64,000 nucleotides of DNA from an uncultured Eubacteriales bacterium (GCA_964541225.1 CAZIPN010000004.1:24382-88381); one strand, 5' to 3'. Shown: positions 3,842 through 46,916, counted from the first letter of the stretch. Notes: generated by a model not told the origin, from the letters alone. Program-made: numbers and translations.

Positions 3842-4771
<930 letters not shown>

Positions 4772-11858: not shown

Positions 11859-11984
11859 CGCGAGCCTGTGACCAGCGGCGACGGCATTCGGACCGCTCAC
11901 AGAAACGCGCTCGCCGTTCCCGGAGCAACGCTCAACGCTACGCTCCGGAACCTGTACGCTTGTTCCAGCCGAGGAGGACGAACC

Positions 11985-13741: not shown

Positions 13742-13808
13742 GGCTGGTGCCGACGGGATCGATCCGGCATCGAATGCGGCAGTCTCGCCCAGCGAGAGGA
13801 GGTGCACC

Positions 13809-23738: not shown

Positions 23739-25439
23739 CTACGGCTTCTTGGTCCATACGTCGAAATCGGCGACCGTCTCAACTCTCGTGTAGCGCGTCA
23801 GCAGCTGTTCAATGAACGGATTGTCACGCGCTGCGTTCTCGTAGGGCAGCAGATGGAGCCTCCTCATTGAGAACAGATCGACGAAGATCACATCGGGCAT
23901 CGCCTCGTGCTCCTCGAAGTAGTCCAGGGCATACCCGTCCGAGCGTGACGGGTAGAGCCACACAGCGTTGGTGTAGATCTGTCCGCCCACTGCCAGATAC
24001 CCTTGCCGTTCTCCGTAGAACGTGACTCGGGATGTCGGCCTCACCAACCGTTTGCCGGTTGCCTCGAGGGCGAGGATCTCCCGTTGGCGCTCAGGGGTGG
24101 TGTGCATTCCCGCATACATGCCCCCACTGACAACCGCCGTCATGTTCTGAGGCCGTCCGTTGTCGACCGACTCCGACCACACGGTGCCCACAGCGATGGC
24201 GAGGATCGCCACCGACGCCACTGCGAGAACGCGCTCTCCGGACAACGTCTCAAGGGCACTGCCCCATGTGGCGATGACGGCGATCGCAGCCGGAACGATT
24301 CCGATGACGGCGACCCCGCGCATCCACGGGGCATCCGTCGAGTACGCGACGGCAGCAAACCCGACCGCTGAGGCTGGGAGCGTGAGGACGAGCAGCGAGA
24401 GCAGGTCGCGGCGCTTCTCCGAGGTGGCCCACACGGCTGTGGGCGCGATGGCAGCGAGCGCGAACGTGATGAGCCAAGCGCTCGCGGTCATGCCGAACAC
24501 GCGCTGGCTCAGGACAATGGCCTGAACGGTGGGCGGCAGTGCGAGTATCGGTAGTGAGAACAGCAGCCAGGCGCGAACGTTGCGTGAAAACCGAGGCACG
24601 CATGCGAGTGCTGCCGCGACCCACATTGGCCACAAGAGCGGTTGTCCCAAGGACCCGGAGAGCCGCGTGGCCGCGCGCTGCAGCTTCTCGGCAGGGGAGC
24701 GGAAGCTCTCGACGTTGGAGGATGCGTAGCGCAGACCCCGAGTGATCTCGGTGATGGACACGAACGCCAACAGGCTGCCGACGAAGACCAGGCTGGTCAC
24801 TGCGGCCGTGATCAGGAGCGGCAGAACGATCCGCCGGTCACGCGTGCGAACGATCAAGACGAAGGCGAGGGTCGCGGCTGCAATCGCCAATGGCGGGTAG
24901 GTGACCGATGCGAATACGAGGGCGACGCCGGTTCCAGCCGCCGCGAGCGGGCTGCGGTCGTGTTCGGCGCGATACGCAAGGGCAACAGCCAGCACAAAAC
25001 CGATGGTGGTCATCTGGTTGTAGCCGGGGGCGAACAGGTTGAACGGTGGGCACAGAAGCGGAACGCTTACGGCGAGTGCGGCGACGAGCGGATGCAACGA
25101 TCGTCGGAGCTGGACGTAGGCGACAAAGGCCACTCCCGCTGCGAGGGCTACGTAGAACAGACGGAATGCGGCTACCAACCCGAACGTGCCGAAGAGGTGA
25201 ATCCACACCCACACGAAGCCTGCTGCCGGCAGGAAGCCGAGTGATTGCACCGACATCTCGTCGGCGAATGGTCGCGCGCCCTCGGCAAGACGAAGCGCCA
25301 CGGTGACGTAGTGGCTGTCGTCGTAGAAGGAGACACCGAACGTCGAGCGCAGCGCGGTGAGTGCGAGGACGATGAGAGCCGCCATCGCGATCGCAATGCG
25401 TTCGGCTCCCCATCCCTGTCGGTTGGTAGGCGCTGGCAT
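23739..25439 (-). CDS. polytopic membrane protein, putative GT-C-type glycosyltransferase
   Basis: About 566 aa from MPAPTNRQGW. At least 12 hydrophobic segments. Acidic first-loop motif FYDDSHY. C-terminal soluble domain. The family assignment is tentative. Confidence 0.45.
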   Translation of the reverse strand: MPAPTNRQGWGAERIAIAMAALIVLALTALRSTFGVSFYDDSHYVTVALRLAEGARPFADEMSVQSLGFLPAAGFVWVWIHLFGTFGLVAAFRLFYVALAAGVAFVAYVQLRRSLHPLVAALAVSVPLLCPPFNLFAPGYNQMTTIGFVLAVALAYRAEHDRSPLAAAGTGVALVFASVTYPPLAIAAATLAFVLIVRTRDRRIVLPLLITAAVTSLVFVGSLLAFVSITEITRGLRYASSNVESFRSPAEKLQRAATRLSGSLGQPLLWPMWVAAALACVPRFSRNVRAWLLFSLPILALPPTVQAIVLSQRVFGMTASAWLITFALAAIAPTAVWATSEKRRDLLSLLVLTLPASAVGFAAVAYSTDAPWMRGVAVIGIVPAAIAVIATWGSALETLSGERVLAVASVAILAIAVGTVWSESVDNGRPQNMTAVVSGGMYAGMHTTPERQREILALEATGKRLVRPTSRVTFYGERQGYLAVGGQIYTNAVWLYPSRSDGYALDYFEEHEAMPDVIFVDLFSMRRLHLLPYENAARDNPFIEQLLTRYTRVETVADFDVWTKKP

Positions 25440-25635
25440 GCGCGAAGGATACGGCGGCACGGGTTCGTCAGCAAGCAGCGGGACGGGGCGCGGCGCAGGG
25501 GACGGGGCGGCCCGGGTTCCTCGGCAGGCATGAGTGGGCGGGGCGCCGTGGGAAGCCACAAGCGGGGAGAATCGAGACACAGAGCGCGACAGGGGGATAT
25601 TCAACGGAGTCTACGAGCCGAAAGGAGCAGCTGCT

Positions 25636-26250: not shown

Positions 26251-26997
26251 GTGGCACTCGAGGGCAACCTCAAGGACTTCTCACTTGCCGACATGTTTCG
26301 GCTGCTGGACAAGGGCTCGAAATCGGGCACTTTGCACGTGACGACCAGGGACTCCGAAGGCATCGTGTGCTTCAGGGGTGGCCAGATCTTCTACGCCTCG
26401 GCGAGCACGCAGCGTGAGCCCACCGGCAAGCGGTTGACGCGGGCCGGCATCATCACCGAGAAGCAGCTTAGGCAAGCGCAGGGTCTGATGAAGATCCAGA
26501 AGCGCGACAAGGCTGACCGCAGACTCGGCCAGATCTTGGTCGACGAGGGGTATGTCGAGCCGGGCATTCTCGAGAATCTGGTCTCCGAGCAAGTCGCTGA
26601 CGCGCTCTTCGTGATGCTGCGATGGGACGACGGCGAGCTTCGCTTCGAGCCCGACGAGCATCGAGCCGATGTGGACCTTGGCTTCACCCTGCCGGTTGAC
26701 CAAGCTGTCACTGACGCCGAGAAGCGCCTGGATGCATGGGAGCGTATTCGGGAGAAGGTGCCATCACTGGACACCCGCTTCGAGATGTCTGCTATGCCGG
26801 GGCAGAAACCGACCGAGATTCATCTGAAACCGCGCGAATGGATGCTGCTGTGCTTCATGCACGGCGCCAAGAGCGTGTCCGAACTGGCCCAACTCACCGG
26901 CTACAACGATTTCGACACCGCGAGAACCCTATATGGGATGTTCACCGGGGGCCTCATCGAGAAGGTCGAGTCAGCCGGGGAGAGTTCGTCGGGCTAG
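26251..26997 (+). CDS. PATAN/DUF4388 domain protein (stand-alone)
   Basis: 248 aa. N-terminus LEGNLKDFSLADMFRLLDKGSKSGTLHV...GIVCFRGGQIFYA is the DUF4388 signature. GTG start with a GAGGAGG SD. First gene of the che operon. Confidence 0.75.
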   Translation: MALEGNLKDFSLADMFRLLDKGSKSGTLHVTTRDSEGIVCFRGGQIFYASASTQREPTGKRLTRAGIITEKQLRQAQGLMKIQKRDKADRRLGQILVDEGYVEPGILENLVSEQVADALFVMLRWDDGELRFEPDEHRADVDLGFTLPVDQAVTDAEKRLDAWERIREKVPSLDTRFEMSAMPGQKPTEIHLKPREWMLLCFMHGAKSVSELAQLTGYNDFDTARTLYGMFTGGLIEKVESAGESSSG

Positions 26998-27000
26998 CCC

Positions 27001-28611
27001 ATGGCGGCCTCCGAAGAGAACCTCAAGAAGGATCTGACCGCCGAGGAATTCGGTCGCTTCCGTGACTGGATTCACAAGCATTCCGGGATCTACCTCGAAG
27101 ACAACAAGCTTGATTCCTTGAGGATATCTCTGGTTTCGCGCGCGACTCGATTCGGGTTCGTCGACTACGGCGAGTACTACCGGATGCTTGTGTCCAGTGA
27201 CGATGAGTTCAAAGAGCTCATGAATCTTGTCACGATCAACGAGACGTCGTTCTTTCGTTTTCCCGCCCAGTTCGAGGCGTTGCGCGACCACGTGATCCCG
27301 GAGATTCTTCAGAGCAAGTCAAAGGTGAGCCGGTCGTTTCGGATATGGTCGGCGGGCTGCTCTACCGGCGAGGAGCCCTACACGCTTGCGATGACGTTGC
27401 TTGACTCAGCCGTTGGAGGTGCTGGGCTTCGGCCCGAAGTGCTTGGGACGGACGTGTCGACTTCGGCACTTGAGCGAGCTCGCAAGGCCGTGTACCCGGC
27501 GCGCGCGCTCGCAAGTGTGTCCCAGACCGTGGTGCAGCGCTGGTTCGAGCCCGTAGCCGGAGGGCACCGTCCGATCAAGCGCGTGCGTGATCTCGTCGAA
27601 TTCTCCTATCACAATTTGGTGAAAGAGCCCTATCCGATAGCGTTGCTATCGAGCTGGGATGTCATCTTCTGCAGGAACGTCACGATCTACTTTCGCCTGG
27701 AGTCGACAAAGCGCGTGGTGAGCAACTTCTTCGACTCTCTCAACCCGGGTGGCTATCTCTTCATCGGCCACTCAGAAACCCTGTCAGCAATTTCTGATCG
27801 TTTCGAGGCGGTGGAGGTCGGTGGCGTGTTCCTCTATCGCAAGCCCCTTCAGCAGCACTTCTTCTCCTTCGACACCATGACGAGGGGGGCCGACGGGGAG
27901 GCTTCGGTGAGTCGTCGGCGCAGTGCCAGCCACTCATCCCGGCCGGGGATCTTTTCCAAGTCGTCGGCGGTGCGGCGGGAATCGGCGGTGCGGCGGGAGT
28001 CGGCCGCGCGTCCGAAGCGGCCGAAAGCCGCAGGGGCTTCGGCAAGCGGCGCGAATCCAGCGCAGACGCGAGCATCCGAAGAGACTGATGTCGCGGCTCA
28101 GAGTGCCGAGGCTGCTATTGCCGAGGCGCACGCACTCCTGGAATCGGCTCGCCCGGCCGAGGCGCGCGAGGCGGCCGACAAGGCTCTCGCGGCCCAACCA
28201 CGCAACGTCCAGGCGATGCTGGTGCGCGCGTATGCCAACGCGGACAGCGGTGACTTTGAATCTGCAACCGCGGACGCGAACGCGGCGCTCGCCATTGACC
28301 CGCTTCTGGCACCCGCGCGCTACGTGCTAGGGATTATCTATCAACGGGCTGGCGACGAGCGTGCGGCGCTCGGGGAATTCAAGCGCACCATCTACATCGA
28401 TCATGAGTTCGTGCTCGCACATTTCAACGCCGCAAACATCTACCGGGGCCGCGGGGCGATGGAAGATGCCTGCCGAGAATACGAGAACGCGCTGACAACG
28501 TTGCATGCGAACCCAGATGGATCGTGGACGGTCTTTCTCGGCGGTTTCAAGCCTGATTTGCTGGCAAAGACCTGCGAACGCAGTCTGCTAGAGTGTCGGA
28601 AGGGGTCGTAG
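27001..28611 (+). CDS. cheR: chemotaxis protein methyltransferase CheR fused to C-terminal TPR repeats
   Basis: 536 aa. INETSFFR, RIWSAGCSTGEEPY and FCRNVTIYF. A Ser/Arg/Ala-rich linker precedes the TPR-like repeats. Confidence 0.9.
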   Translation: MAASEENLKKDLTAEEFGRFRDWIHKHSGIYLEDNKLDSLRISLVSRATRFGFVDYGEYYRMLVSSDDEFKELMNLVTINETSFFRFPAQFEALRDHVIPEILQSKSKVSRSFRIWSAGCSTGEEPYTLAMTLLDSAVGGAGLRPEVLGTDVSTSALERARKAVYPARALASVSQTVVQRWFEPVAGGHRPIKRVRDLVEFSYHNLVKEPYPIALLSSWDVIFCRNVTIYFRLESTKRVVSNFFDSLNPGGYLFIGHSETLSAISDRFEAVEVGGVFLYRKPLQQHFFSFDTMTRGADGEASVSRRRSASHSSRPGIFSKSSAVRRESAVRRESAARPKRPKAAGASASGANPAQTRASEETDVAAQSAEAAIAEAHALLESARPAEAREAADKALAAQPRNVQAMLVRAYANADSGDFESATADANAALAIDPLLAPARYVLGIIYQRAGDERAALGEFKRTIYIDHEFVLAHFNAANIYRGRGAMEDACREYENALTTLHANPDGSWTVFLGGFKPDLLAKTCERSLLECRKGS

Positions 28612-28685
28612 TCTGGCCTAAAGACGCCCGCACTTTGGGGCGATAACTGGTAAGACATGCCCAATCGGAGGGGAGCACAGTAGAG

Positions 28686-29066
28686 ATGCCGAACGCGCGA
28701 ATTCTCGCGGTCGACGACAGCCCGACGATCCTTGAGATGATCAAGGCGATCCTGCAGTCGGGTGGCTACGAAGTGATCACAGCCACGGACGGGGCTGAGG
28801 CGCTCGAGACCGCACGTGCCGAGATTCCCGATCTCATCTTGCTCGACGTCATGCTTCCCAAGCTCGATGGCTATCGAGTGTGTCGGCTCCTGAAGTTCGA
28901 CCAGAAATACAAGAACATCCCCATCATCATGCTGACGGCCAAGACCGAGGAGCAGGCGATGGCGACGGGTATTCGGACGGGCGCGAACCAGTACTTGACG
29001 AAGCCGATTGAGCCCGAAAAGCTGCTCTCGGCCGTGGCCGACGAGCTGTCCAAGATCTCGGGCTGA
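28686..29066 (+). CDS. cheY: single-domain response regulator (CheY-like)
   Basis: 126 aa. ILAVDDS, LLDVMLPKLDG, MLTAK, YLTKP. Confidence 0.9.
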   Translation: MPNARILAVDDSPTILEMIKAILQSGGYEVITATDGAEALETARAEIPDLILLDVMLPKLDGYRVCRLLKFDQKYKNIPIIMLTAKTEEQAMATGIRTGANQYLTKPIEPEKLLSAVADELSKISG

Positions 29067-29074
29067 CGGATGTC

Positions 29075-31084
29075 ATGACGATGTCCGAAACGACTTCAAT
29101 TGCCGGACGCGTACTCGACGGGCTGGTGTCGGCGGGGATTCTGTCCGCCGATCAAGAAGCCAGCGCGCGAGACGGTGCGGCATCCGATGCAGACGCCGGC
29201 CGTTCTCTGGTCTCCCTCGGGGCCATCAACTCAGCTCAGATCGCGACCGTGCTCGAAGAAGGCATGGGCGTTCCGCGGGTTGACCTGGCGAGCTACGCGC
29301 CCGATGATGACGCGCTTGTGCGTGTTCCCGCAGACATCGCGCGGGCTCATCATGTGCTCCCGCTCTTTGAGATCGAAGGAATGCTGACGGTTGCCATCGG
29401 CGATCCACAAGACGTGTTCGGGCTCGACTCCCTAGGATCCGAGCTCTCGCTTGAAGTGGAGATGGTGCTTGCCGACGCTCCGGCGGTCACCTCTTCGATC
29501 GCGCAATACTATGGCGCACCTGCAGCCGAGCAGGAACAGCTTGAGGTCGCAGAGCCCCTGGGCGCTGCGGAGCCGGTTGCCGAGTCCGTCACTGAGCCGG
29601 TTGCGCAGGTTCCCGAGATGTCAGAGATCGTTGAGCCAGTAGCTGAGTTCGGGGCCCCAGCCGGCCAACCTGGCGGTCAGGTGCCGGACGAGGGCGTGTA
29701 CTTCGATGGCGTGCCGGTTGTGGCGGACGCTGACGAGCTTGAGATGTCGGCGACGGACTTCTTCGAAGTGAGCGAGGACGTTCCGGTCGTTGTGGACGCG
29801 CCCGAGGCCGTGCACGAGGAACTTGAGAGTGCCGAGGCCAATACCGTGCAGACGGTTGAGGAGGTCGTCTCGGCGACCCCGGAATCCACGTCAGGCATTG
29901 ACCTCGACGTGCTTGCGGTCGCGGACGATCGCAAGGTCAGCGTGCTGGTCTCAGACATCCTCGACCAGGCTGTGGCGCGCGGTGCAAACCGCATCCACCT
30001 GCTGCCGTATAAGAACGACTTCTTCCTGGTCTTTCGCATCCAGGGACGGCTCGAGAAGATCGCGAGCGCTCCGCTCTCAATGCAGGGGCCGCTTATCGAG
30101 GGTTTCAAGAACTACGCGAAGCTGGGTGCCGTGCCCGCCGACTTGCCCGCGCTCGGCAGACTCCATGCCGACATCGGCGGCAAGGGGCTGGTGCTCACCG
30201 TTTCGTCGGTACCGACCGTGGCGGGACAACGCCTTGTTGTGTCGATTGCCCCAGCTCGTCCTCAGCCGCGGGATTTCCTCGAACTCGGCATGACAGAAGC
30301 TGAGTCCAAGGCGCTCCAGGCAATGGTTGAGCGCGGACGCGGCATTCTGCTGGTCTCAGCACCCGTCGCCGGTGGGCGTTCCAGCACGTACTACGCTCTG
30401 CTGCAGCACGCTGCTCAGGCCGGAAAGACGGTGTATTCGGTCGAACGATCCATCGAGTATGAGATCCCCGCGGTCGCTCAGGTCCTTGTGAATCCGGGCT
30501 CGCCCGTTGGTGCGGCGTCCTACTTCGCCGCTGGCATGCGGCAAGACACGGACATGCTGGCGATCGACTCGATTCAATCGGTCGAGGACGTTCACCTGGC
30601 GATCGAGGCCGCCGGTCTCGGCAAGCTCGTGATCGCGACGTTTGCGGGAGCCGACATCGTTACGGCCGTGCGCAGGATGCTGGATCTGGGCGCCGAGCCG
30701 GTTTCGCTGGCCAGCGCGCTTACGCTTGGAATCGGGCAGCGCGTTGTGCGGACCAACTGTCCGAGCTGCACGGTCGAGGAGGAGAGTCCGCTGGCCGCCA
30801 AGATTCCGGGAGCCAGCGCGGGCATGACCGCCAGGCGCGGGGCCGGGTGTGCGGCGTGCGCCAACACCGGATTCGCTGGGGCAACCGGGATCTTCGAAGT
30901 GCTGCCCTTCACCGAATCCATGCGCGCTGAGATCGCGCGCGGCGCAACTGCCGAGCAACTCCTGGCCGCCGCACGTGCTGCCGGCATGCGCCCGATGATC
31001 GCGTCGGGTCTCGCGAAGGTGCGTGAGGGCGTGATCAGCGCCGAGGAACTCGATCGCGTACTGCGTTTCTCGGTGTCGAGGTGA
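29075..31084 (+). CDS. PilB/GspE-family protein with degenerate ATPase motifs (predicted pseudo-ATPase). It has an N-terminal T2SSE_N/MshEN-like domain and retains the CxxC...CxxC motif.
   Basis: 669 aa. T2SSE_N pattern (VPRVDL...ARAHHVLPLFEIEGMLTVAIGDPQD). The Walker A position reads APVAGGRSST, Walker B reads DTDMLAIDSIQS and the His box reads GKLVIATFAGA. NCPSC...GCAAC is retained. Confidence 0.8.
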   Translation: MTMSETTSIAGRVLDGLVSAGILSADQEASARDGAASDADAGRSLVSLGAINSAQIATVLEEGMGVPRVDLASYAPDDDALVRVPADIARAHHVLPLFEIEGMLTVAIGDPQDVFGLDSLGSELSLEVEMVLADAPAVTSSIAQYYGAPAAEQEQLEVAEPLGAAEPVAESVTEPVAQVPEMSEIVEPVAEFGAPAGQPGGQVPDEGVYFDGVPVVADADELEMSATDFFEVSEDVPVVVDAPEAVHEELESAEANTVQTVEEVVSATPESTSGIDLDVLAVADDRKVSVLVSDILDQAVARGANRIHLLPYKNDFFLVFRIQGRLEKIASAPLSMQGPLIEGFKNYAKLGAVPADLPALGRLHADIGGKGLVLTVSSVPTVAGQRLVVSIAPARPQPRDFLELGMTEAESKALQAMVERGRGILLVSAPVAGGRSSTYYALLQHAAQAGKTVYSVERSIEYEIPAVAQVLVNPGSPVGAASYFAAGMRQDTDMLAIDSIQSVEDVHLAIEAAGLGKLVIATFAGADIVTAVRRMLDLGAEPVSLASALTLGIGQRVVRTNCPSCTVEEESPLAAKIPGASAGMTARRGAGCAACANTGFAGATGIFEVLPFTESMRAEIARGATAEQLLAAARAAGMRPMIASGLAKVREGVISAEELDRVLRFSVSR

Positions 31085-31578
31085 GTGCGTTGGCCAAGAC
31101 CAACATCCCAGATCGTTCTGAGGTCGCGGCACAGGCGGACACCGGCGAGATCGAACGAGTCGTCGCGTTTCATCTGAGTGGCCAACGCTACGCATTGCCC
31201 ATCGGGCGGGTTCGTGAGATCCAGCAGATCGTGGCACTTTCCGATGTTCCCGAGGGCGTCAACGGCGTTGTCGGGATGGTCAATCTCCGGGGCCAGGTCA
31301 TTCCAGCGGTCGACATGCGCCGGTTGGTTGGGCTCGAAGTGCGCGAGTATACGCTGGAGACGCCGATGGTGATCACCGAGATTCATGGCCGGGTTGTGGC
31401 GCTGCTCGTTGACGAGGTCGAGGACGTGCTTGAGGTGCCCGAAGGCGCGATGCAAGAGGCGCCGCCCCTGCACCAGCTGTCCGGAAGCATGATCGGCGTC
31501 GTTCGGCTTGCCGATGGTCTTGTCTACGTCCTCGATCCCGATCGGCTTGTCGGGATGGACCTTCTTGAGCGGGCCTGA
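31081..31578 (+). CDS. cheW: CheW-like coupling protein 1
   Basis: 165 aa. VVAFHLSGQRYALPIGRVREI...GMVNLRGQVIPAVDMR. GTGA overlap with the previous gene. Confidence 0.85.
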   Translation: MSALAKTNIPDRSEVAAQADTGEIERVVAFHLSGQRYALPIGRVREIQQIVALSDVPEGVNGVVGMVNLRGQVIPAVDMRRLVGLEVREYTLETPMVITEIHGRVVALLVDEVEDVLEVPEGAMQEAPPLHQLSGSMIGVVRLADGLVYVLDPDRLVGMDLLERA

Positions 31579-31580
31579 TC

Positions 31581-32132
31581 GTGAGCGCCGAGAACTCCTC
31601 CCGGGACACGAGCACGGCCGCTGAGGACATCCTCGCTCGTCGAGCCGAATCGCTGGCCATGGAGTCGGTCGAGGAGGAAGTGTCGGATCGCATTTCGATG
31701 CTGCGGTTTCGCATCGGAGATGAGTGGTATGCGGTGCGAGTCGCGGACGTGCGCGAGATCTTCCAGGAATACGACGTCACGGGAGTGCCGGGTACTCCGC
31801 CCTACGTTCTCGGCGTGACCAACGTGCGAGGTGAGATTCTGTCGGTGACAGATCCAGCGCTCTTGGTTGGATTGGGCAAGATCGTCGGAACGGGCGAGGG
31901 GCAACCCCCGGCTATCGTCGTGAAGAATGGTGTGGTGACAACAGCGCTGGTTGTCGATGAGATAGGTGACATCGTTGAAGTTGCGAACGAACTGCTGGAA
32001 CCGCCGGTCGGCTTGATGGATCGCGCACAAGCTGAGTTCGTAGCTGGATCGGTGTTTGTGAACGGTACCATGATCGGTTTGCTCGACGTAGGAAGAGTGC
32101 TTGAGCCGGTGGATACGTCCAACCGACGCTAG
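31581..32132 (+). CDS. cheW: CheW-like coupling protein 2
   Basis: 183 aa. MLRFRIGDEWYAVRVADVREI...GVTNVRGEILSVTD. Confidence 0.85.
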   Translation: MSAENSSRDTSTAAEDILARRAESLAMESVEEEVSDRISMLRFRIGDEWYAVRVADVREIFQEYDVTGVPGTPPYVLGVTNVRGEILSVTDPALLVGLGKIVGTGEGQPPAIVVKNGVVTTALVVDEIGDIVEVANELLEPPVGLMDRAQAEFVAGSVFVNGTMIGLLDVGRVLEPVDTSNRR

Positions 32133-32153
32133 ACCGGGAGGTCGACGGTAGCA

Positions 32154-33380
32154 ATGCAGATCTGGAAGAAGCTCAACAGTCGGATTCTGTATCGGCTCAC
32201 GCTCACGACGGTGGTGATGCAGATCGCCTACGTCGTGATCCAGCTGCTGCTCATTGACGTGTTCTTCAGCAAGCAGATCGCGGCTGACCCGCGGATCATG
32301 CAGAGCCTCGCGCTAGTCATCGGTGCGTCCGTGGTGGTGCTCGTGGTCTGGGCGTTTGCGGTGTACGCCGTTGCCAGGCGGTCGCTTGGGCCGCTGTCGG
32401 CCATCGTTACAAGTGTTCAGGCGGCATGCCAAGGCGACATCGGGCACAAGGTCGAAGTCAACACTGCCGACGAGATCGGGACGCTCGCGACTTCTTACAA
32501 CCAGATGCTCGACCTGATCGTCTACCTCATCCGGCAGACGCAAGAATCCTCGAAGCGTTTGGCAGGTTCGAGCAACGACATCCTCTCGGCGACTGAGGAG
32601 CAGGCTTCTGGAGCCGCTCAGCAGGCCGCTTCCATCAGCGAAACGACTGCGACGATGGAGGAGCTGGCGAGCACCTATCGGCAGATCGCCGAGAACGCCG
32701 ATCACGTTGTGACGATGGCCGAGGCCTCGCTCGGCAGCGCCGAGAATGGGCAGCAGGCCGTCGCGAATACGCTCTCGGCGATGGAAGAGATCAAGACCCG
32801 TACGCAAGCCAGCGCGAACAAGATTCTGGCGCTCGGCGAGCGCAGTCAACAGATCGGGCAGGTGCTCTCAATCATCAACGGGATTGCCGACCAGACCAAG
32901 ATCCTCGCGCTCAACGCCGCCATCGAGGCCGCTCGAGCTGGCGAGGCGGGGAAGGGCTTCTCGGTCGTTGCCATCGAAATCCGCAAGCTCGCCGAGTCGG
33001 TTGTCGATTCGACCGGAGAGATCAGCGGCATCATGACCGAGATCCAGAGTTCGGCCAACGATCTGGTGATCTCGACAGAGCAAGAGCTGCGTCACGTGCA
33101 GGTGGGCGTCGACCTGGCCCACACCACGGGCGAGAGCCTGGACAGCATCCTGGAACTCATCGAGCAGACCACCGTGGCGGCCAAGGAGATCTCGGCGGCC
33201 ACGCAGCAACAGAAGAGCGCGACCGACCAGGTCGTCAAGGCGATGCGCGAGGTTGCGGCGGTTGCACAGCAGACCGCAGCGGGTTCTCGGCAGGTGGCTT
33301 CGGCTGCTGAGGCGCTATCCGGCATGGCGAAGGAGTCGAGCCAGGTTGGCTCGGCGTTCCAGATCGTCGAGGGCGCCTAG
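32154..33380 (+). CDS. methyl-accepting chemotaxis protein without an obvious ligand-binding domain (2 TM, HAMP, short signalling domain)
   Basis: 408 aa. Hairpin tip IADQTKILALNAAIEAARAGEAGKGFSVVAIEIRKLAE. Only a short loop lies between the two TM segments. Confidence 0.9.
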   Translation: MQIWKKLNSRILYRLTLTTVVMQIAYVVIQLLLIDVFFSKQIAADPRIMQSLALVIGASVVVLVVWAFAVYAVARRSLGPLSAIVTSVQAACQGDIGHKVEVNTADEIGTLATSYNQMLDLIVYLIRQTQESSKRLAGSSNDILSATEEQASGAAQQAASISETTATMEELASTYRQIAENADHVVTMAEASLGSAENGQQAVANTLSAMEEIKTRTQASANKILALGERSQQIGQVLSIINGIADQTKILALNAAIEAARAGEAGKGFSVVAIEIRKLAESVVDSTGEISGIMTEIQSSANDLVISTEQELRHVQVGVDLAHTTGESLDSILELIEQTTVAAKEISAATQQQKSATDQVVKAMREVAAVAQQTAAGSRQVASAAEALSGMAKESSQVGSAFQIVEGA

Positions 33381-33419
33381 TCCCGCAACGCGTGACTCCC
33401 GGCAAGGAGCGGAAGGCCG

Positions 33420-35810
33420 ATGGTCGAGTTTGACCGCAGCGCGTTCATATCGAAGTTCCAAGAAGAGGCGCAGGACCTTCTGCAGCGCCTCAACGAGGGC
33501 GTTATCACACTGGAGTCGGAGCCGGCCAACCGCGAACTCATCGACCAGATGCTACGCGACGCCCACACACTCAAGGGTTCGTCGCGCATGGTCGGCCTCA
33601 TCGAGATCTCCGACGTGGCCCATTCGCTCGAAGACATCATGGTCAAGGTTCGCGAGAAGGAGATCGAGTACACCGCCGACATGACCGACTCGTTCTTCGA
33701 GGCGCTCGACGCGATCGTCTACCTGACTGAAAACGCTGGCGTCAACGTGGACGATGCGATCGACCTCGGCGTCATCAGAGAGCGGCTGAACTCGGCTGCG
33801 GGCATCGTCGAAGAAGAAGAGGGCACGCAGGAGTCCAACGAGTCAGCGCCCGCTCCGGCAGCGCCCAAGAAGCGAACCCGGCGCAAGAAGGCGTTGAGTG
33901 CGTCTTCAGAGGCCGCTGGCCAGCCGGGGCGTGAGTCCGACGAAGAGGCACCCGCCGAGGACCAGACCGCCGAAGACCAGACCGCCGAAGACACCGGCTC
34001 CGAGACAGAGGGCGAGGAACTCGCCGAGGGCGGGCACACTCACACCGTCCAGCGCGAGGGCGAACTCAAGTCCAAGTCCCAGCAAACCATCCGCGTCCGC
34101 ACCCACCAGGTCGATGAGCTCCTCAACGTGATCAGCGAAGTTGTGATCGGCCAGATCAAGACCGAGCAACGCACGCTGGATGTGCGGGGAGTCCAGTCTC
34201 ATGCCAACGATGCGTGGCAAGCATGGGTTCGCGTGAAATCGGCGCTCTCATCGATGGGCAGCCTCGAACTTGTGGAGGCGCTGTCAGACGATCTCAACGC
34301 GCTCGACGTGGCGCTTGCGGAGTCCAAGCGTGAGCTAGCGGAGTTCTTGAAGCAGTACAGCGATGACACATCTCGGACCTCGGTGGTCGTCAATGACTTG
34401 CAGGAACTCGGCATGGGGCTTCGCATGCTTCCGGCCAACACGATCTTCCAGGCGTTTCCGCGCGCGGTGAGAGACCTTGCGAAGCAGTTCCACAAGGACA
34501 TTGAGTTGGTCATCGAAGGCGGTACGACCGAACTCGACAAGAAGGTGCTCGAGGAGATCAACGATCCGCTCGTGCATATCATGCGCAACGCTGTCGACCA
34601 CGGAATTGAGTCTCCCGCCGAGCGGGTTGCTGCCGGGAAGCCAGCGACCGGAACGATCACGCTGGCCGCTCGGCAAGAGGGCGACCGTATCGTCATCGAG
34701 ATCGGCGACGATGGGGCGGGCATCGACCCAGTCAAGATTCGCGAAAACGCCGTTCGCAAGGGCTACGTGACTGAAGCCGAGGCCAAGGGCATGTCTGACC
34801 GCGAGGCACAGTACATGATCTTCGAGGCTGGGTTCTCCACCGCGCCGATCATCACCGAGATATCTGGACGAGGCGTCGGCATGGACGTCGTTCGTGAGTT
34901 CGTGGTGGAGAAACTGAAAGGCTCGCTCGATCTTGACTCCGCGAGGGGCAAGGGCACGACGTTTCGCCTCACCATTCCGCTCACGCTCGCGATCATCCGT
35001 GCCCTGCTGCTTCGTGTCGGCGAGCACATCTACGCGCTGCCTACCGGCTCGATCGAAGAGACCATGCGCGTGTCGCCGAGCGAAATCATCAAGGTCGAGG
35101 GGCGTGAGGTCATCCGGCGTCAGCGCAGAACGATTCCACTTGTGCGCCTCGCCGACATCCTCGGCGTTGCTTCCGATCCGCCGTCTAGCAAGGTGCCGAT
35201 AGCGACGATTGGGTACTCGGGCCACCGCATGGGCTTCATCGTCGACTCATTCGTCGGCGAGCAGCAGATTGTGATCAAGACGCTCGGGTCGCACCTGATC
35301 AAAGTCGACAACGTCGCGGGCGTGACGATTCTTGGCGCGGGCGAGGTCGTCCCAATCCTGAATGTTCCAGATCTCATGAACAACGCGCGCACGCGAAGCG
35401 GTCAGCGGGTCGGGAGGATCGAGAAGCAGGAGAGGGCTGGTTCTCGGCGCATTCTGATCTGCGAAGACTCGTTTACCACGAGGGAACTCGAGCGATCGAT
35501 CTTCGAGGCGGCCGGCTATGAAGTTGAGACCGCCAACGATGGCGCTCAAGGGCTCGGCAGGCTGAAGGAAGGGCTGAAGATCGACGCGGTGGTGACCGAC
35601 GTCCAGATGCCCAACATGACGGGTTTCGAGCTCACGCGAGCGATCAAGAGCGATGCGAACCTGGAATCCATTCCTGTCGTCATCGTGACCTCGCTGGAAC
35701 GCGATGAAGAGAAGGCCGAGGGCGTCGAGGCCGGTGCGGATGCCTATATCACGAAGTCAGTGTTCAACCAGGACACGCTGCTCGACACGGTCGAGCGCCT
35801 GATCCGCTAA
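33420..35810 (+). CDS. cheA: hybrid CheA histidine kinase with C-terminal receiver (Hpt - acidic linker - dimerisation - HATPase - CheW - REC)
   Basis: 796 aa. Hpt HTLKGSSRMVG. N box HIMRNAVDHGIE. G boxes DDGAGID and GRGVGMDVV. CheW-like domain. REC ILICEDS...DVQMPNMTG. Confidence 0.93.
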   Translation: MVEFDRSAFISKFQEEAQDLLQRLNEGVITLESEPANRELIDQMLRDAHTLKGSSRMVGLIEISDVAHSLEDIMVKVREKEIEYTADMTDSFFEALDAIVYLTENAGVNVDDAIDLGVIRERLNSAAGIVEEEEGTQESNESAPAPAAPKKRTRRKKALSASSEAAGQPGRESDEEAPAEDQTAEDQTAEDTGSETEGEELAEGGHTHTVQREGELKSKSQQTIRVRTHQVDELLNVISEVVIGQIKTEQRTLDVRGVQSHANDAWQAWVRVKSALSSMGSLELVEALSDDLNALDVALAESKRELAEFLKQYSDDTSRTSVVVNDLQELGMGLRMLPANTIFQAFPRAVRDLAKQFHKDIELVIEGGTTELDKKVLEEINDPLVHIMRNAVDHGIESPAERVAAGKPATGTITLAARQEGDRIVIEIGDDGAGIDPVKIRENAVRKGYVTEAEAKGMSDREAQYMIFEAGFSTAPIITEISGRGVGMDVVREFVVEKLKGSLDLDSARGKGTTFRLTIPLTLAIIRALLLRVGEHIYALPTGSIEETMRVSPSEIIKVEGREVIRRQRRTIPLVRLADILGVASDPPSSKVPIATIGYSGHRMGFIVDSFVGEQQIVIKTLGSHLIKVDNVAGVTILGAGEVVPILNVPDLMNNARTRSGQRVGRIEKQERAGSRRILICEDSFTTRELERSIFEAAGYEVETANDGAQGLGRLKEGLKIDAVVTDVQMPNMTGFELTRAIKSDANLESIPVVIVTSLERDEEKAEGVEAGADAYITKSVFNQDTLLDTVERLIR

Positions 35811-35827
35811 GCGCGAAGGCGGCACAC

Positions 35828-36874
35828 ATGCCTCCAGCAGGCAGCAAGGTACGCGTGGTCATTGCGGACGACTCTCTTGTCGCCCGAGAGATGCTGTCCA
35901 CGATTCTCTCATCCGACCCCGACATCGAAGTTGTGGGTCTCGCATCGGATGGTGCCGAGGCGGTCGAGCTTGTCGAGCGGCTGCGCCCGGATCTCGTGAC
36001 CATGGACATCCACATGCCCAAGATGAACGGCCTGGAAGCCACGGAACGCATCATGGCCTTTCATCCCACTCCCATTCTTGTGGTGTCCTCGTCGGTGCAC
36101 GGAGAGGGCATTGGGCTGGCGTTCGACGCGCTTACGCTCGGCGCACTTGAGGTGATCAAGAAGCCGGAACCGCGCGATTGGGCGGACCTGGAGCGCATTG
36201 GCAGCGAGGTGCTGCGCAAGGTCAAGATTCTGGCACGCGTCAAGGTGATTACGCATATCAGGGGGCGACGCGACCGCTCGGGTGAAGTGAGGCCCCAGAG
36301 CCACGCCGAGGTTCCGGCTCGCGGGGTCGTCGCAATCGGATCCTCAACTGGCGGGCCTTCGGCGTTGCTGACGGTCTTTCAGCAGTTGCCAGCATCGCTT
36401 CCCGTGCCGATTCTCGTGGCGCAACACATCGCCGACGGCTTCATCCCCGGGCTCGTGAGCTGGTTGGACGCGAGCGTTCACGTGCGCGTTGTGGCCGCCG
36501 AGAAGGACGCGTTGCCAGAACCTGGGGTGGTCTACATCGCACCGACGGGGACCAACATGGTCCTTGAGGGCAAGCGCATAGCGTTTCGTCCACCTGGCCC
36601 CGGTCAGCTCTACATCCCGAGCGCAGACAGCCTGTTCGAGTCTGTCGGGCGCTCGTATGGCAAGCATGCAGTCGGCGTGATCCTCACCGGAATGGGGGCC
36701 GACGGAGCGTCGGGCTTGAAATCGATGCACGACCGTGGCGCCACAACCATCGCTCAGGACGAAGCCACCTGCACGGTCTTTGGCATGCCCAAGGCGGCGA
36801 TCGATCTTGGCGCGGCCGATCAGATCTTGCCGATGGAGAGCATTGGCTCGGCAATCGTCGAGCTCGTAGGGTAG
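35828..36874 (+). CDS. cheB: chemotaxis response regulator protein-glutamate methylesterase
   Basis: 348 aa. REC VVIADDS...DIHMPKMNG. Esterase motifs IGSSTGGP, VAQHI and GMGADG. Confidence 0.92.
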   Translation: MPPAGSKVRVVIADDSLVAREMLSTILSSDPDIEVVGLASDGAEAVELVERLRPDLVTMDIHMPKMNGLEATERIMAFHPTPILVVSSSVHGEGIGLAFDALTLGALEVIKKPEPRDWADLERIGSEVLRKVKILARVKVITHIRGRRDRSGEVRPQSHAEVPARGVVAIGSSTGGPSALLTVFQQLPASLPVPILVAQHIADGFIPGLVSWLDASVHVRVVAAEKDALPEPGVVYIAPTGTNMVLEGKRIAFRPPGPGQLYIPSADSLFESVGRSYGKHAVGVILTGMGADGASGLKSMHDRGATTIAQDEATCTVFGMPKAAIDLGAADQILPMESIGSAIVELVG

Positions 36875-36974: not shown

Positions 36975-37901
36975 ATGGAATCAGCTGCCATCGGCATCTT
37001 CGACAGCGGGCTTGGCGGACTCACGGTTGCGCGGGAGATCGCTCGTGCGCTGCCCGATGAGTCCCTCATCTACCTCGGCGATACGGCGCGTTGGCCGTAT
37101 GGGCCGCGCGACTTCTCTGAAGTCCGGCGATTCGTGCTTGAGATCGGCTGCTGGCTTCAGTCTCACGACGTCAAGTTCATCGTCGTGGCGTGCAACACGG
37201 CGACCGCCGCCGGTCTCATGCTCGCGCAGCGCGCGTTCTCCGTGCCTGTGATCGGCGTCATCGAGCCAGGAGCCCGAGCAGCTGTCATGGCCACGCGCAA
37301 CCGCAGTGTCGGAGTTATCGGCACAGTCGGCACGATCGAATCGGGCGCCTACAGCCGAGCGGTTCGCGCACTGGACGCTGGCGTGACGGTCTTCTCGATC
37401 GCAACACCGCGCTTCGTCGACATCGCCGAGGAGGGTCTGCGCCTCGACGTCGGGCCCGTCGAGGGCCTGCTTGCTGACTCGGCGGACGTCTTCGTACGGC
37501 CGTCCTTCCATGAGATCGCACGCGACTACCTCGATCCTCTCAAGCGAAACGGCATCGACACCCTCGTGCTGGGCTGCACGCACTACCCGCTTCTGTCCAC
37601 GGCGATCCAGCAGGTGGTCGGTGCTCGCGTGCAGCTCATCAGCTCGGCACATGAGACAGCCATCGAAATCGCCGAGACCCTTGCTCGCCGAGGGCAGCTC
37701 GCGCCAACCGGCGCGACACCGCACCACCGCTTCGCGACCACGGGGGACGCTATCGAGTTCCGGCGTCTTGGCTCGCGGGTCTTTGGCTCGCCGATTCCGC
37801 GTGCCGAAACGGTGCCGGTGGCCGCGCTCACGGGCCTACCGAACGGCGAGCTACTCGCGCTTATGGACGATCGAGCGACGTGGGAGGCTTCATGCGCGTG
37901 A
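36975..37901 (+). CDS. murI: glutamate racemase
   Basis: 308 aa. IGIFDSGLGGLTV, VVACNTA and LGCTHYPLL (both catalytic Cys contexts). Confidence 0.92.
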   Translation: MESAAIGIFDSGLGGLTVAREIARALPDESLIYLGDTARWPYGPRDFSEVRRFVLEIGCWLQSHDVKFIVVACNTATAAGLMLAQRAFSVPVIGVIEPGARAAVMATRNRSVGVIGTVGTIESGAYSRAVRALDAGVTVFSIATPRFVDIAEEGLRLDVGPVEGLLADSADVFVRPSFHEIARDYLDPLKRNGIDTLVLGCTHYPLLSTAIQQVVGARVQLISSAHETAIEIAETLARRGQLAPTGATPHHRFATTGDAIEFRRLGSRVFGSPIPRAETVPVAALTGLPNGELLALMDDRATWEASCA

Positions 37902-38659
37902 CAGTTCTTGGCTCCTCGGCGAGCTACTCCGGACCGCAGCGAGCGTGTGCCGGGCACTTCTTGGAGGCTGCGGGCGCCCGGCTTCTCCTTGACTGTGGGA
38001 ATGGCGTGATTGCCAATCTCGCGCAGATCCAGAACCCGGAAGACATCGACGCGGTGTTCATCACGCACAATCACCCCGATCACTACGCCGATATCTACGT
38101 GCTGCACGCCGCATTGCGCTACGCGCCGAGCGGTCCGCGTCCACCGCTGCCGCTCTACCTGCCGAAAGGTCTGTGGGAGCGGCTGCCATGTCTGCTCTCC
38201 GAGCGAGGTGCTGCCGACTTCGCCGAGGCGTTCATTCCGGTTGAACTCGAGCCCGCCACTGCAATCATCATTGGCGGTGTGAAGATCACGCCAATCCCGG
38301 TTGAGCACACCGAGCCCACGTTTGCGTTGGTCGTGGAGGCGGACGGTGAGCGATTCGCCTACACGTCGGACACCGCCATGTGTCCAGGAGTGCGTGAGGC
38401 AGCCCACGATGTCGACCTGTTGCTTGCGGAGGCGACACTTCCGGAGCGATACGCCGACCAGGCGCCGCATCTCACGGCGTCCCAGGCAGGGACGCTTGCG
38501 CGCAAAGCTGGTGCGCGGGCGCTCGCGCTCGTTCACGTATGGCCGACGAACGATCGCGTCGAGATGGCTCGGCAGGCAAGCGAGGCATTTGGCTCGGCGG
38601 TATTTGTCGCCGAGGAATTCGATGTCTTTGACATCGACACACGAGATGGAGATGACTGA
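37892..38659 (+). CDS. MBL-fold metallo-hydrolase (position equivalent to the mycobacterial gene between murI and rph)
   Basis: MRVTVLGSSAS...FITHNHPDHYAD (HxHxDH). ATG preceded by GGGAGG. Overlaps the murI stop. Confidence 0.8.
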   Translation: MRVTVLGSSASYSGPQRACAGHFLEAAGARLLLDCGNGVIANLAQIQNPEDIDAVFITHNHPDHYADIYVLHAALRYAPSGPRPPLPLYLPKGLWERLPCLLSERGAADFAEAFIPVELEPATAIIIGGVKITPIPVEHTEPTFALVVEADGERFAYTSDTAMCPGVREAAHDVDLLLAEATLPERYADQAPHLTASQAGTLARKAGARALALVHVWPTNDRVEMARQASEAFGSAVFVAEEFDVFDIDTRDGDD

Positions 38660-45368: not shown

Positions 45369-45395
45369 GCGACTTCCTAGGTTGTCTCCTCCGGA

Positions 45396-46307: not shown

Positions 46308-46319
46308 CGTTCCCTCCCT

Positions 46320-46913: not shown

Positions 46914-46916
46914 TGC

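Follow-up and report, generated by a model that had tools for sequence, protein, structure and literature searches.

With moderate confidence, the operon described here, from an uncultured, anaerobic actinobacterium, is best taken to encode a chemosensory pathway of Frz/ACF type that most likely acts on type IV pilus (T4P) machinery whose genes lie in another part of the genome. The truly unusual part is narrower than first claimed and appears, from its motifs, to be an ATPase-dead PilB paralogue kept by selection, here called psiPilB. Since the best reading is control of type IV pili, the output is probably not new; the putative adaptor, psiPilB, is undescribed.

Nine co-directional ORFs on the + strand span positions 26251-36874 of the window, the whole 64-kb stretch of DNA that was analysed. 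The first-pass annotation had counted ten genes, its own gene list giving nine, and Pfam agrees with the order PATAN, CheR-TPR, CheY, PilB-like, CheW, CheW, MCP, CheA-REC, CheB that it proposed. The first gene (26251..26997) encodes a stand-alone PATAN (DUF4388) protein of 248 aa (Pfam PF14332, 108 bits). It is followed by a CheR methyltransferase with C-terminal TPR repeats in a FrzF-like architecture (27001..28611; CheR_N, CheR, TPR_2/16/17), the single-domain response regulator CheY (28686..29066; Response_reg) and psiPilB, a PilB/GspE-family paralogue of 669 aa (29075..31084; MshEN and T2SSE). Two CheW adaptors (31081..31578, CheW at 105 bits, and 31581..32132, CheW at 98 bits) precede a membrane-anchored MCP with a 40-heptad signalling domain (32154..33380; HAMP and MCPsignal), a hybrid CheA, CheA-REC (33420..35810; Hpt, H-kinase_dim, HATPase_c, CheW and Response_reg), and a CheB methylesterase with its receiver at the N-terminus (35828..36874; Response_reg and CheB_methylest). 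The intergenic gaps, 5' to 3', are 3, 74, 8, -4, 2, 21, 39 and 17 bp, and no terminator-like site was found on the + strand inside the operon. The psiPilB and cheW genes overlap by 4 bp, which suggests that the two are translationally coupled.

The signalling core consists of the MCP, two CheW and CheA-REC, with methylation-based adaptation by CheR-TPR and CheB. By hydropathy the MCP has two TM helices, one at roughly residues 15-39 and the other at roughly 49-74, with only about 10 residues of loop between them; it therefore lacks a periplasmic sensor domain, as the first-pass annotation had stated. Relative to Tsr (36H) the MCP has two symmetric 14-residue insertions, and its alignment with the Pseudomonas aromatic acid chemoreceptor (6s18), which we take to be a 40H receptor, is nearly gapless. 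These features put the MCP in the 40H length class, and 40H receptors go with the ACF, Tfp and F6 classes. CheA has one Hpt (P1), with the phospho-histidine motif HTLKGS, followed by P3, P4, P5 (one CheW domain) and a C-terminal receiver; no P2 domain was detected with Pfam. NCBIfam gives only generic CheA matches, below their cut-offs, and CheB scores 348 bits on its CheB subfamily model, above the cut-off of 342. The classes in which CheA-REC hybrids mainly occur are F3, F5, ACF and Tfp; several Hpt domains are the rule in CheAs of the Tfp class, and two CheW domains mark those of F5 (PMC10782961). A receiver at the C-terminus, a missing P2 and one CheW domain are typical of ACF. Because the single Hpt disagrees with Tfp and the one CheW domain with F5, ACF is left, and the predicted domain set fits that class by elimination. 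CheC, CheD, CheZ, CheV and CheX were not found in the cluster by Pfam, and their absence, with that of flagellar genes, from operon and window is a further ACF feature. Structural genes for flagella, pili or secretion were not detected anywhere in the 64 kb by Pfam (a scan of the likely genes picked from all ORFs by a GC3-based heuristic), a pilin-motif regex or tblastn with canonical PilB, and the window contains no dual-REC gene. The first-pass annotation had likewise listed CheC/D/Z and these structural genes as absent, and its view of a Frz/ACF-like rather than flagellar component set is upheld by the Pfam content, the 40H MCP and the CheA-REC without P2.

The presence of PATAN and degenerate PilB genes inside a che operon is likewise borne out by Pfam and motif alignment, and a neighbourhood check of this co-occurrence found the same order in 132 fetched loci. 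Such recurrence means that the gene order is not due to chance. All 78 loci long enough for judgement contain all eight gene types, and a true rearrangement is seen in none of them (0/78). The 132 loci take in about 80 genomes of Anaerosomatales/Coriobacteriia (OPB41). With the PilB-like protein as query, 80/80 genome loci are Coriobacteriia, Anaerosomatales or Actinomycetota MAGs, which supports the actinobacterial affiliation predicted earlier for the host. The cassette also occurs on contigs of 32-43 % GC, where psiPilB identity is only about 30 %, and it is ancient and reaches past this actinobacterial lineage. In two low-GC versions a small Ras/Arf-like GTPase gene directly follows PATAN; PATAN genes are known to neighbour MglA/MglB-type modules, which are also known targets of Frz (PMC4316618). 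The literature searched yielded no account of such a gene order, in a model organism or otherwise.

In psiPilB an N1/MshEN-fold domain is followed by a linker that is acidic and variable, and then by N2 and a C-terminal ATPase fold (T2SSE 213 bits, MshEN 60 bits); the protein matches PilB in the PDB with E = 1e-68. It has the T2SSE fold, the N1/MshEN domain and a conserved Cys4 zinc motif (CxxC...CxxC) of the PilB/GspE family; the catalytic motifs are lost: the Walker A lysine and Walker B glutamate are gone, as are the Asp box and both histidines of the His box. Aligned to Geobacter PilB (5zfr/5tsg), GPTGSGKT has become APVAGGRS, EDP has become ERS, GEIRD has become DSIQS and GH..H has become GK..A, so that psiPilB reads APVAGGRS, VERSIE, AIDSIQS and GKLVIATFAGAD where the canonical motifs are GPTGSGKT, EDP.E, VGEIRD and GHLV.STLHTN. 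Its scores on the NCBIfam equivalogs for PilB (281 bits, cut-off 676) and GspE (266, cut-off 630) are far too low for either, and a relaxed MshEN 24-residue pattern has no match in its N-terminus. The degenerate motifs are nearly invariant in 120 homologues and are also present in relatives down to 29 % identity, across which 48 alignment columns are invariant. As these motifs are themselves conserved, psiPilB appears to be a selectively maintained pseudo-ATPase, catalytically dead by motif. Its mean Kimura distance, 0.50, is near that of the housekeeping RdgB, 0.48. Residual co-evolution of psiPilB, an exploratory measure over 20 taxa, is 0.79-0.83 with CheR, CheA and CheW2 and 0.47 with PATAN; these values are no less compatible with a role at the array or on the input side than with one in the output.

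The PF14332/DUF4388 match of the PATAN protein covers residues 4-164 and the whole 122-position model, at 108 bits (cut-off 25), and includes the alpha-helical insertion of the domain. In an AF2 model (pLDDT 81.7) a beta core carries inserted helices at 58-122, and the C-terminus forms a three-helix, wHTH-like domain. The insertion contains an MshEN-type 24-residue motif at aa 91-114, RLGQILVDEGYVEPGILENLVSEQ, which fits the published MshEN pattern and is kept in 61/71 orthologues. The reference domain has two tandem [RKPN]hGxxhhxx[GAS]hhxxxxhxxxhxx[QNKRYWST] motifs of 24 residues each, about 5 residues apart. Here motif II is perfect (aa 91-114); motif I, judged by eye, is degenerate, and the spacer, also by eye, is about 10 residues. 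NCBIfam NF053729 scores 36.3 bits (cut-off 38). A Foldseek search of the PDB with the model gave no significant match (best E = 0.15), and the C-terminal domain has a local, non-significant likeness to the EutK C-terminal domain (TMt 0.72) and MarR. Since this domain is wHTH-like in the model, there may be room for a transcriptional output. PATAN and REC are separate genes (248 aa and 126 aa) with cheR between them. PATAN domains are known to bind the PilB N-terminal domain and PilC.

CheY, a single REC of 126 aa, is the operon's only dedicated phospho-acceptor and has D10/D11, D54, T84 and K106. Its gene is also conserved more strongly than any other in the operon, with a median identity of 88 % over 78 genome loci and a mean Kimura distance of 0.12 compared with 0.34 for Rph. 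REC genes 50-63 % identical to CheY lie directly upstream of an intact pilB-pilC-pilin set in at least 16 metagenome loci, which belong to other metagenomic lineages.

The first-pass annotation had concluded from the lack of nearby motility genes that the output is unknown and may be new. That conclusion is countered by a relative, EMTCatB1, which carries the operon (L061), with its genes transcribed at TPM 80-394. Away from the operon, EMTCatB1 has a complete T4P cluster, pilM...pulO-pulF-pilT-pulE (equivalent to pilM...pilD-pilC-pilT-pilB: 1c0227 pilM, 1c0232 pulO, 1c0233 pulF, 1c0234 pilT, 1c0235 pulE), and a second pilT (1d0891). The search beyond the window thus yielded pilus loci, seen in this one relative through its supplementary gene table, and no 'flagell*' annotation among the gene-table rows listed. 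Cultured Anaerosomatales are non-swimming rods (scored in liquid) that bear pili-like appendages, in one strain only with ferrihydrite (PMC9686372). The EMTCatB1 cluster, these piliated relatives and the binding of PATAN to PilB and PilC make T4P the obvious candidate output. T4P genes adjoin the cassette in none of the 132 carrier loci, nor in the 64-kb window, so there is no direct neighbourhood link between cassette and pilus.

A mechanism can be proposed in which CheA would phosphorylate CheY, and CheY~P would work with the PATAN protein as a "split" PatA-type regulator. [quoted passage not shown] There it may compete with the real PilB, or dock beside it, on the PilC/PilM platform, and so gate pilus extension or select the pole of extension. 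In this way a signal from the membrane or cytoplasm could lead the cell to shift its piliation, adhesion or twitching, and the MshEN-type motif in the PATAN insertion might add a c-di-GMP input.

An ordinary flagellar chemotaxis operon, with its flagellar regulon elsewhere in the genome, would account for the full set of core che genes, CheR and CheB included, and the CheA core has its top NCBIfam score on an archaeal F1-type CheA model (396 bits). This reading is nevertheless very improbable and close to refuted: the cultured relatives are non-motile, with flagella not described (PMC9686372), the listed EMTCatB1 rows lack a 'flagell*' entry, CheC, CheD, CheV, CheX and CheZ are all absent, CheA is a REC hybrid without P2, the 40H MCP has no sensor domain, and PATAN and psiPilB belong to the operon as integral and conserved parts. 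It is scarcely credible, too, that psiPilB is a functionless, decaying pseudogene-like remnant in a relic operon. Every ATPase motif is lost, and the MCP, CheA and CheB region looks fragmented in one relative (L082, 70.7 % GC), but the psiPilB ORF is intact in 132 loci, its dead motifs are nearly invariant, its evolutionary rate is comparable to that of housekeeping genes, the gene is kept across lineages at about 30 % identity, and the EMTCatB1 orthologue is transcribed (TPM 262).

The remaining alternatives concern the output. Control of a non-pilus process is unlikely; candidates would be cell polarity or division by way of a GTPase module, development, or transcription via the wHTH-like C-terminus of the PATAN protein, with psiPilB as a repurposed scaffold that has nothing to do with a pilus. 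ACF-class systems have diverse outputs (PMC10782961), remote cassettes carry the Ras-like GTPase, pilus genes adjoin no cassette, and the wHTH likeness of the PATAN C-terminus is joined by a weak HTH_27 match in the L087 orthologue. The Foldseek matches are non-significant, however, psiPilB keeps the PilB-specific N1 domain and zinc motif, and PATAN in the literature is mainly concerned with T4P regulation, save for PatA in heterocyst patterning. It is distinctly improbable that psiPilB and PATAN instead form the input, with psiPilB seated at the pilus base, or binding a nucleotide or c-di-GMP, and pilus or envelope state signalled to the array of MCP, CheW and CheA; in that case CheY~P would act on something else, for example biofilm formation, exopolysaccharide or extracellular electron transfer. 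Since the MCP itself lacks a ligand-binding domain, the pathway needs input from elsewhere; psiPilB overlaps cheW, and by residual distances it is closer to CheR, CheA and CheW2 than to PATAN. A precedent is M. xanthus PilB, which signals upstream of the Dif chemosensory pathway in the control of EPS (PMC5544727). Against an input role, the operon has no alternative output domain (neither GGDEF nor a DNA-binding response regulator), its only output is a single-domain CheY that needs a protein target, the CheY subfamily lies directly upstream of real pilB genes, and experiments show PATAN to be an output domain that acts on PilB and PilC.

Several known systems share parts of this design. The cyanobacterial Tax/Pil systems, with the PATAN-REC regulators PixG, PilG and PixE, also use PATAN as a chemosensory effector module, and have in common a second, plain CheY and MshEN-like "alpha-clip" repeats in the PATAN insertion. 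Here, in contrast, PATAN is stand-alone and not fused to REC, the operon holds a dedicated ATPase-dead PilB paralogue, and CheA has a single Hpt. CheR and CheB, present here, are to our knowledge lacking from cyanobacterial Tax operons. Pil-Chp (Tfp) of Pseudomonas aeruginosa polarises T4P extension through single-domain response regulators and shares the CheA-REC hybrid and CheR/CheB. It has an antagonistic CheY pair, PilG and PilH, whereas there is one CheY here, it has no PATAN protein or PilB paralogue, and ChpA has many Hpt domains (PMC10782961) compared with one; the multi-Hpt CheA, PATAN-REC fusion and PilG/PilH pair of the Tfp class are all absent from this operon. TfpB (Acinetobacter), PilB2 (Synechocystis) and PilU resemble psiPilB as extra PilB/PilT-family paralogues that aid or modulate a primary motor. 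They are described as working ATPases in the multiple-PilB-homologue section of PMC11656802, a section that makes no mention of an ATPase-dead or che-operon PilB paralogue, whereas psiPilB has lost its catalytic motifs.

FrgA and SgnC of M. xanthus are likewise stand-alone, non-REC PATAN/MshEN-motif proteins, and they influence swarming, social motility and aggregation. SgnC, a PATAN protein, is needed for social gliding, and a PATAN domain was reportedly noted in FrgA by Makarova et al. in 2006. We know of no che operon with a PilB paralogue around either gene. FrgA, called a "frz-related gene", has been described as MshEN plus an uncharacterised domain (PMC5013675).

Frz from M. xanthus (FrzA, FrzB, FrzCD, FrzE, FrzF, FrzG, FrzZ) is also among the closest known systems. 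The receptor here is membrane-anchored, with two TM helices and HAMP, whereas FrzCD is a cytoplasmic receptor without TM helices; the output is a single-domain CheY and not the dual-REC FrzZ; cheR lies upstream and not after cheA. The Frz operon has no PilB paralogue or PATAN gene, and the host here is an actinobacterium. The component set of two CheW, CheA-REC, CheR-TPR and CheB is nevertheless shared, as is the local order cheW-cheW-mcp-cheA, and Prokka labels the EMTCatB1 orthologues of CheR-TPR (1d0154) and the MCP 'frzF' and 'frzCD'. Frz is non-flagellar and sets pilus or gliding polarity through a small GTPase module, and remote versions of the present cassette carry a Ras-like GTPase.

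The chemosensory operon at 26251-36874 on the + strand consists of nine co-directional ORFs separated, in order, by 3, 74, 8, -4, 2, 21, 39 and 17 bp. No terminator-like sites were found on the + strand within it. The first-pass annotation had counted ten genes while listing nine; nine is the number found, and the tight packing it described stands, with one 4-bp overlap. Pfam assigns the products, all encoded on the + strand, as a DUF4388/PATAN protein (248 aa, 108 bits), a CheR_N-CheR-TPR protein (536 aa), a receiver-only CheY (126 aa), a PilB/GspE-family protein with MshEN and T2SSE domains (669 aa), two CheW proteins (165 and 183 aa), an MCP with HAMP and MCPsignal domains (408 aa), a hybrid CheA with Hpt, dimerisation, HATPase, CheW and REC domains (796 aa) and a REC-CheB (348 aa). 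In CheY, CheA, the CheA receiver and CheB, the residues needed for catalysis or phosphate acceptance read as intact. The MCP has two hydrophobic helices (~15-39 and ~49-74) and, because a loop of only ~10 residues separates them, has no periplasmic sensor domain. The operon encodes a complete methylation-adapting chemosensory core, alongside a single CheY, a single PATAN protein and a dead paralogue of PilB.

This paralogue, psiPilB, aligns to Geobacter PilB structures with E = 1e-68, and the alignment shows that its ATPase motifs are lost. Walker A reads APVAGGRS where canonical PilB has GPTGSGKT, the Asp box ERSIE for EDPVE, Walker B IDSIQS for IGEIRD, and the His box GKLVIATFAGAD for GHLVLSTLHTND. 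The Cys4 zinc motif and an arginine of the 'GR' finger are retained. psiPilB scores 281 against a cut-off of 676 for the NCBIfam PilB equivalog and 266 against 630 for the GspE equivalog; the label 'PilB/GspE ATPase' given by annotation pipelines is misleading. The degenerate motifs are near-invariant in 120 homologues (>=59 % identity). In a search space of 1.84 billion representative proteins, relatives at 29-49 % identity form a graded family, all without the His box and Asp box, some still with the Walker A GK[ST] and Walker B Glu, and canonical PilBs come after them at ~250 bits. The mean Kimura distance is 0.50 for psiPilB, 0.48 for RdgB and 0.66 for the neighbouring MBL gene, so that psiPilB evolves at about the rate of its housekeeping neighbours. 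Near-invariant dead motifs and a housekeeping-like rate argue that psiPilB is maintained as a non-catalytic protein and is not decaying.

When one genome per GTDB species was scanned, 80 psiPilB loci were found. All 80 are labelled Coriobacteriia, Anaerosomatales, Actinomycetota or alike, or are evidently mislabelled bins, and the order PATAN-CheR-CheY-psiPilB-CheW-CheW-MCP-CheA-CheB is found in every one long enough to judge. CheY is the most conserved gene of this cassette, with a median identity of 88 %. Contigs of 32-43 % GC (L085, L087, L090, L092) carry more remote psiPilBs within this cassette too, and further metagenome contigs with it span ~32-58 % GC (L093-L096, L134, L144). The psiPilB loci total 132, and all eight gene types are present in 78/78 of those long enough. 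Seven apparent gene-order exceptions proved to be extra or split tblastn matches, with no rearrangement. The cassette genes are tightly packed and co-inherited. The cassette is characteristic of Anaerosomatales (OPB41); it is conserved and predates its host lineage.

The low-GC (32-36 %) version of the cassette in L085 and L087 has an additional small GTPase-like gene of 170 aa between PATAN and CheR (L085:7529-8044 and L087:7526-8038), the L085 copy scoring above the Pfam Arf and Ras cut-offs. No GTPase gene is present in the actinobacterial operon. This suggests that an MglA-like polarity switch may have been part of an ancestral or alternative form of the module. MglA and MglB genes recur beside PATAN genes, and Frz works through MglA (PMC4316618), both of which fit the GTPase of the remote cassettes. 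In the L090/L092 low-GC subclade both CheW are merged in one protein of 317-329 aa, and a baeRF_family10 (bacterial eRF1-like) gene lies immediately before the PATAN gene (L090:6248-7300, L092:6146-7084). At L082:13000-18600, in a relative of 70.7 % GC whose psiPilB is 44 % identical, the stretch with mcp, cheA and cheB is seemingly fragmented or fused to murI, reflecting either real pathway decay or long-read frameshift errors.

The AF2 model of the PATAN protein (mean pLDDT 81.7) consists of a beta-sheet core, a helical insertion (58-122) and a C-terminal three-helix bundle (194-232). Foldseek gave no significant fold match to the PDB. The C-terminal bundle has a local, non-significant similarity to wHTH domains; weak matches to CheF and PilM do not allow interpretation. 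Residues 91-114 of the insertion, RLGQILVDEGYVEPGILENLVSEQ, are an exact fit to the 24-residue c-di-GMP-binding MshEN pattern published by Wang et al. 2016, and the copy before it is degenerate. With the NCBIfam MshE-motif model the score is 36.3, just under the cut-off of 38. The motif is conserved in 61/71 orthologues, low-GC ones among them; a search with the 24-residue pattern found no match in the psiPilB N-terminus. The literature already notes the likeness of PATAN insertions to the N1 'alpha-clip' repeats found in PilB-type ATPases, the binding of the PATAN module to the PilB N-terminal domain and its sufficiency for phototaxis reversal. Oceanithermus PilF-like proteins (P0303-P0312, 883-886 aa) carry PF14332 in precomputed Pfam lists. 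A PATAN-PilB fusion there was rejected as Rosetta-stone evidence, since on rescanning the score was a sum over MshEN repeats with no single significant stretch. Database co-occurrences of 'PATAN + GspE_N' may therefore be partly artefacts, stemming perhaps from the helical-insertion part of the DUF4388 model.

Directly downstream of cheB are murI, an MBL-fold hydrolase gene, rph and rdgB (36975-40010, +). murI starts 101 bp past cheB and so may be transcribed together with the che operon. About 42-44 of the 80 genome loci have the same four genes after cheB, and the hydrolase has an Anti-Pycsar Apyc1-like Pfam match in relatives. Farther away are tig, clpX and valS. Directly upstream, a divergent gene (23739-25604, -) encodes a 621-aa polytopic membrane protein of no Pfam family, absent at the corresponding position in L001, the one relative inspected. 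Pfam also identifies a molybdopterin oxidoreductase operon of the DMSO-reductase family (43573-49841, -) encoding a 974-aa catalytic subunit, a 4Fe-4S subunit, an NrfD-type membrane subunit, a TorD/NarJ-like chaperone and an extra ferredoxin-like protein; its likely role is the respiratory reduction of sulfur or other oxyanion compounds.

At the other side of the window, a nitrogenase cluster on the + strand comprises nifH (3923-4771), nifD (4773-6224), nifK (6229-7737), a fused nifE-nifN-like gene with two Oxidored_nitro domains (7744-10416), two P-II genes (10848-11587), a radical-SAM NifB-like gene (11868-12899) and molybdate-type ABC transporter genes (12902-14486). Near this cluster a GAF-sigma54-AAA-HTH_8 (NifA-like) activator is encoded at 16999-18531 (-). 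Nitrogen fixation and regulation through sigma-54 are both unusual in Actinomycetota. The activator was dropped as a sign of non-actinobacterial origin, since homologue taxonomy shows the lineage to be actinobacterial and to carry this gene beside the nif genes; the close homologues of NifD are by name from Coriobacteriia and Actinobacteria MAGs. The Anaerosomatales description paper makes no mention of nitrogenase (PMC9686372).

The relative EMTCatB1 ('Coriobacteriaceae sp.') has the cassette as genes 1d0154-1d0160 (L061), transcribed at TPM 80-394 in a published metatranscriptome table (PMC7943316 supplement). Its type IV pilus (T4P) cluster contains 1c0227 pilM, 1c0232 prepilin peptidase, 1c0233 pilC, 1c0234 pilT and 1c0235 pilB (PMC7943316), with a second pilT at 1d0891, and no 'flagell*' is found among the table entries listed (PMC7943316 supplement). 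The look for pilus and flagellar loci proposed earlier gave, within the table entries listed, a pilus locus in this one relative. Both Anaerosomatales in culture are rods that do not move and that bear many pili-like appendages, which in Parvivirga appear only with ferrihydrite; the describing paper has no discussion of che or pilus genes (PMC9686372).

A metagenome scan queried with N1-domain motifs of remote psiPilBs found cassettes and, in at least 16 loci, a stand-alone REC of ~125 aa immediately 5' of pilB-pilC-orf-pilin. This REC is 50-63 % identical to the window CheY, which is only 31-37 % identical to other receivers in the fetched loci (e.g. the CheA receiver), and the adjoining pilB has intact motifs. 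It looks like a PilB-associated single-domain response-regulator subfamily. REC-pilB-pilC-orf141-pilin loci occur at L123:9609-14192 and in L101, L102, L105, L107, L109-L112, L119, L125, L126, L128, L131, L147 and L168, on contigs of 40-61 % GC that also encode SLH-domain proteins. A conserved N-terminal domain fused to this REC, which would have made it a PatA-type regulator, was rejected: the tblastn signal comes from hflX, encoded on the other strand and translated antisense.

In the proposed mechanism the MCP would sense a membrane or cytoplasmic cue and CheA would phosphorylate CheY. CheY~P and the PATAN protein, together a functional split PatA-type regulator, would engage psiPilB, with PATAN possibly modulated by c-di-GMP. 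Having kept the PilB docking domains and lost extension power, psiPilB would act by occupying or organising the PilC/PilM platform, or real PilB, and so gate the place and timing of pilus extension. The whole route, from MCP through CheA and CheY~P/PATAN to psiPilB at the pilus platform, is slightly more likely than not. A stronger version makes the ATPase-dead PilB the dedicated effector of an ancient, unclassified PATAN-(GTPase)-CheR-CheY-psiPilB-CheW-CheW-MCP-CheA-CheB cassette, in which CheY~P and c-di-GMP-responsive PATAN would toggle the pseudo-motor on and off the PilC/PilM platform and competition between dead and live hexamers would gate pilus extension. It is put forward tentatively and with more doubt than belief. 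If true, such competition would be a new principle of T4P control, and the pathway would be the first behavioural (twitching/adhesion taxis) one in strictly anaerobic, non-flagellated deep-subsurface Actinomycetota.

Several other readings were weighed against pilus gating through psiPilB. The output might be polarity, development or transcription. The first-pass annotation had suggested a possibly new output, and was borne out in seeing no flagellar, pilus or secretion structural gene in the 64 kb: Pfam finds none among likely genes called by a GC3-based heuristic, and a pilin-motif regex and canonical-PilB tblastn on the window were both negative. The T4P cluster of EMTCatB1, the piliated isolates and the known binding of PATAN domains to PilB and PilC weaken the suggestion of a new output, and a non-pilus output is unlikely. 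Somewhat less likely still, psiPilB and PATAN could form the input side, as in the M. xanthus route from PilB through Dif to EPS. Compatible with this, psiPilB, which shares its history with the operon, has tighter residual co-evolution with CheR, CheA and CheW2 than with PATAN in exploratory mirror-tree partial correlations; based on 20 taxa and non-independent pairs, these do not single out a binding partner. Functionless decay is close to excluded by the maintenance of psiPilB. So is flagellar chemotaxis, with non-motile isolates and the receptor and CheA features described below.

A handful of Gram-negative models (Pseudomonas, Myxococcus, cyanobacteria) account for what is understood of chemosensory T4P control, and even there the signal route to the pilus motor is debated. 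Such control is already known, as are Frz/ACF architectures and the role of PATAN as an effector that binds PilB and PilC. No description was found of a catalytically dead PilB as a fixed che-operon member, or of the split PATAN and CheY arrangement, in the openly searchable literature (mostly outside subscription journals) or a 2024 PilB cofactor review. The same literature gave no description of the cassette as a unit common to Anaerosomatales and unrelated low-GC lineages, no characterised system with this gene order, which the first-pass annotation had wished checked, and no prior description of chemotaxis or pili in OPB41. Here one tightly coupled operon unites a signalling core, a PATAN module and a PilB copy with docking domains but without catalysis, which leads to the prediction of a pseudo-ATPase adaptor between CheY/PATAN and the pilus platform. 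The psiPilB adaptor is a real, testable oddity. The actinobacterial order Anaerosomatales is found in the subsurface worldwide and has two recent isolates; since one strain forms pili on insoluble Fe(III), attachment to mineral electron acceptors may be under the control of this pathway. The Ras-like GTPase added in unrelated low-GC lineages links the cassette to the MglA-type polarity paradigm.

The heptad class of the MCP was obtained by alignment, as first proposed. Relative to E. coli Tsr (36H) it has two symmetric insertions of 14 residues each, and its alignment to the Pseudomonas aromatic acid chemoreceptor 6s18 is nearly gapless. With the HAMP end at ~122, the hairpin tip at ~263 and the C-terminus at 408, these make it a 40H receptor. 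CheV, the companion of F3 systems, is absent from this pathway. CheA-REC hybrids belong mainly to the F3, F5, ACF and Tfp classes; in Tfp most CheAs have several Hpt domains, and those of F5 carry two CheW domains (PMC10782961). Since these features of Tfp, F5 and F3 are missing, the pathway is by elimination a probable ACF member. Tfp systems differ in having a multi-Hpt CheA and a fused PATAN-REC regulator, and Frz in its cytoplasmic receptor and dual-REC FrzZ, none of which is present here. The EMTCatB1 orthologues carry the Prokka labels frzF and frzCD. The component set is Frz/ACF-like, as had been read from the sequence at the outset: with its hybrid CheA-REC, the operon shares with Frz the CheR-TPR, the two CheW and the local order cheW-cheW-mcp-cheA.
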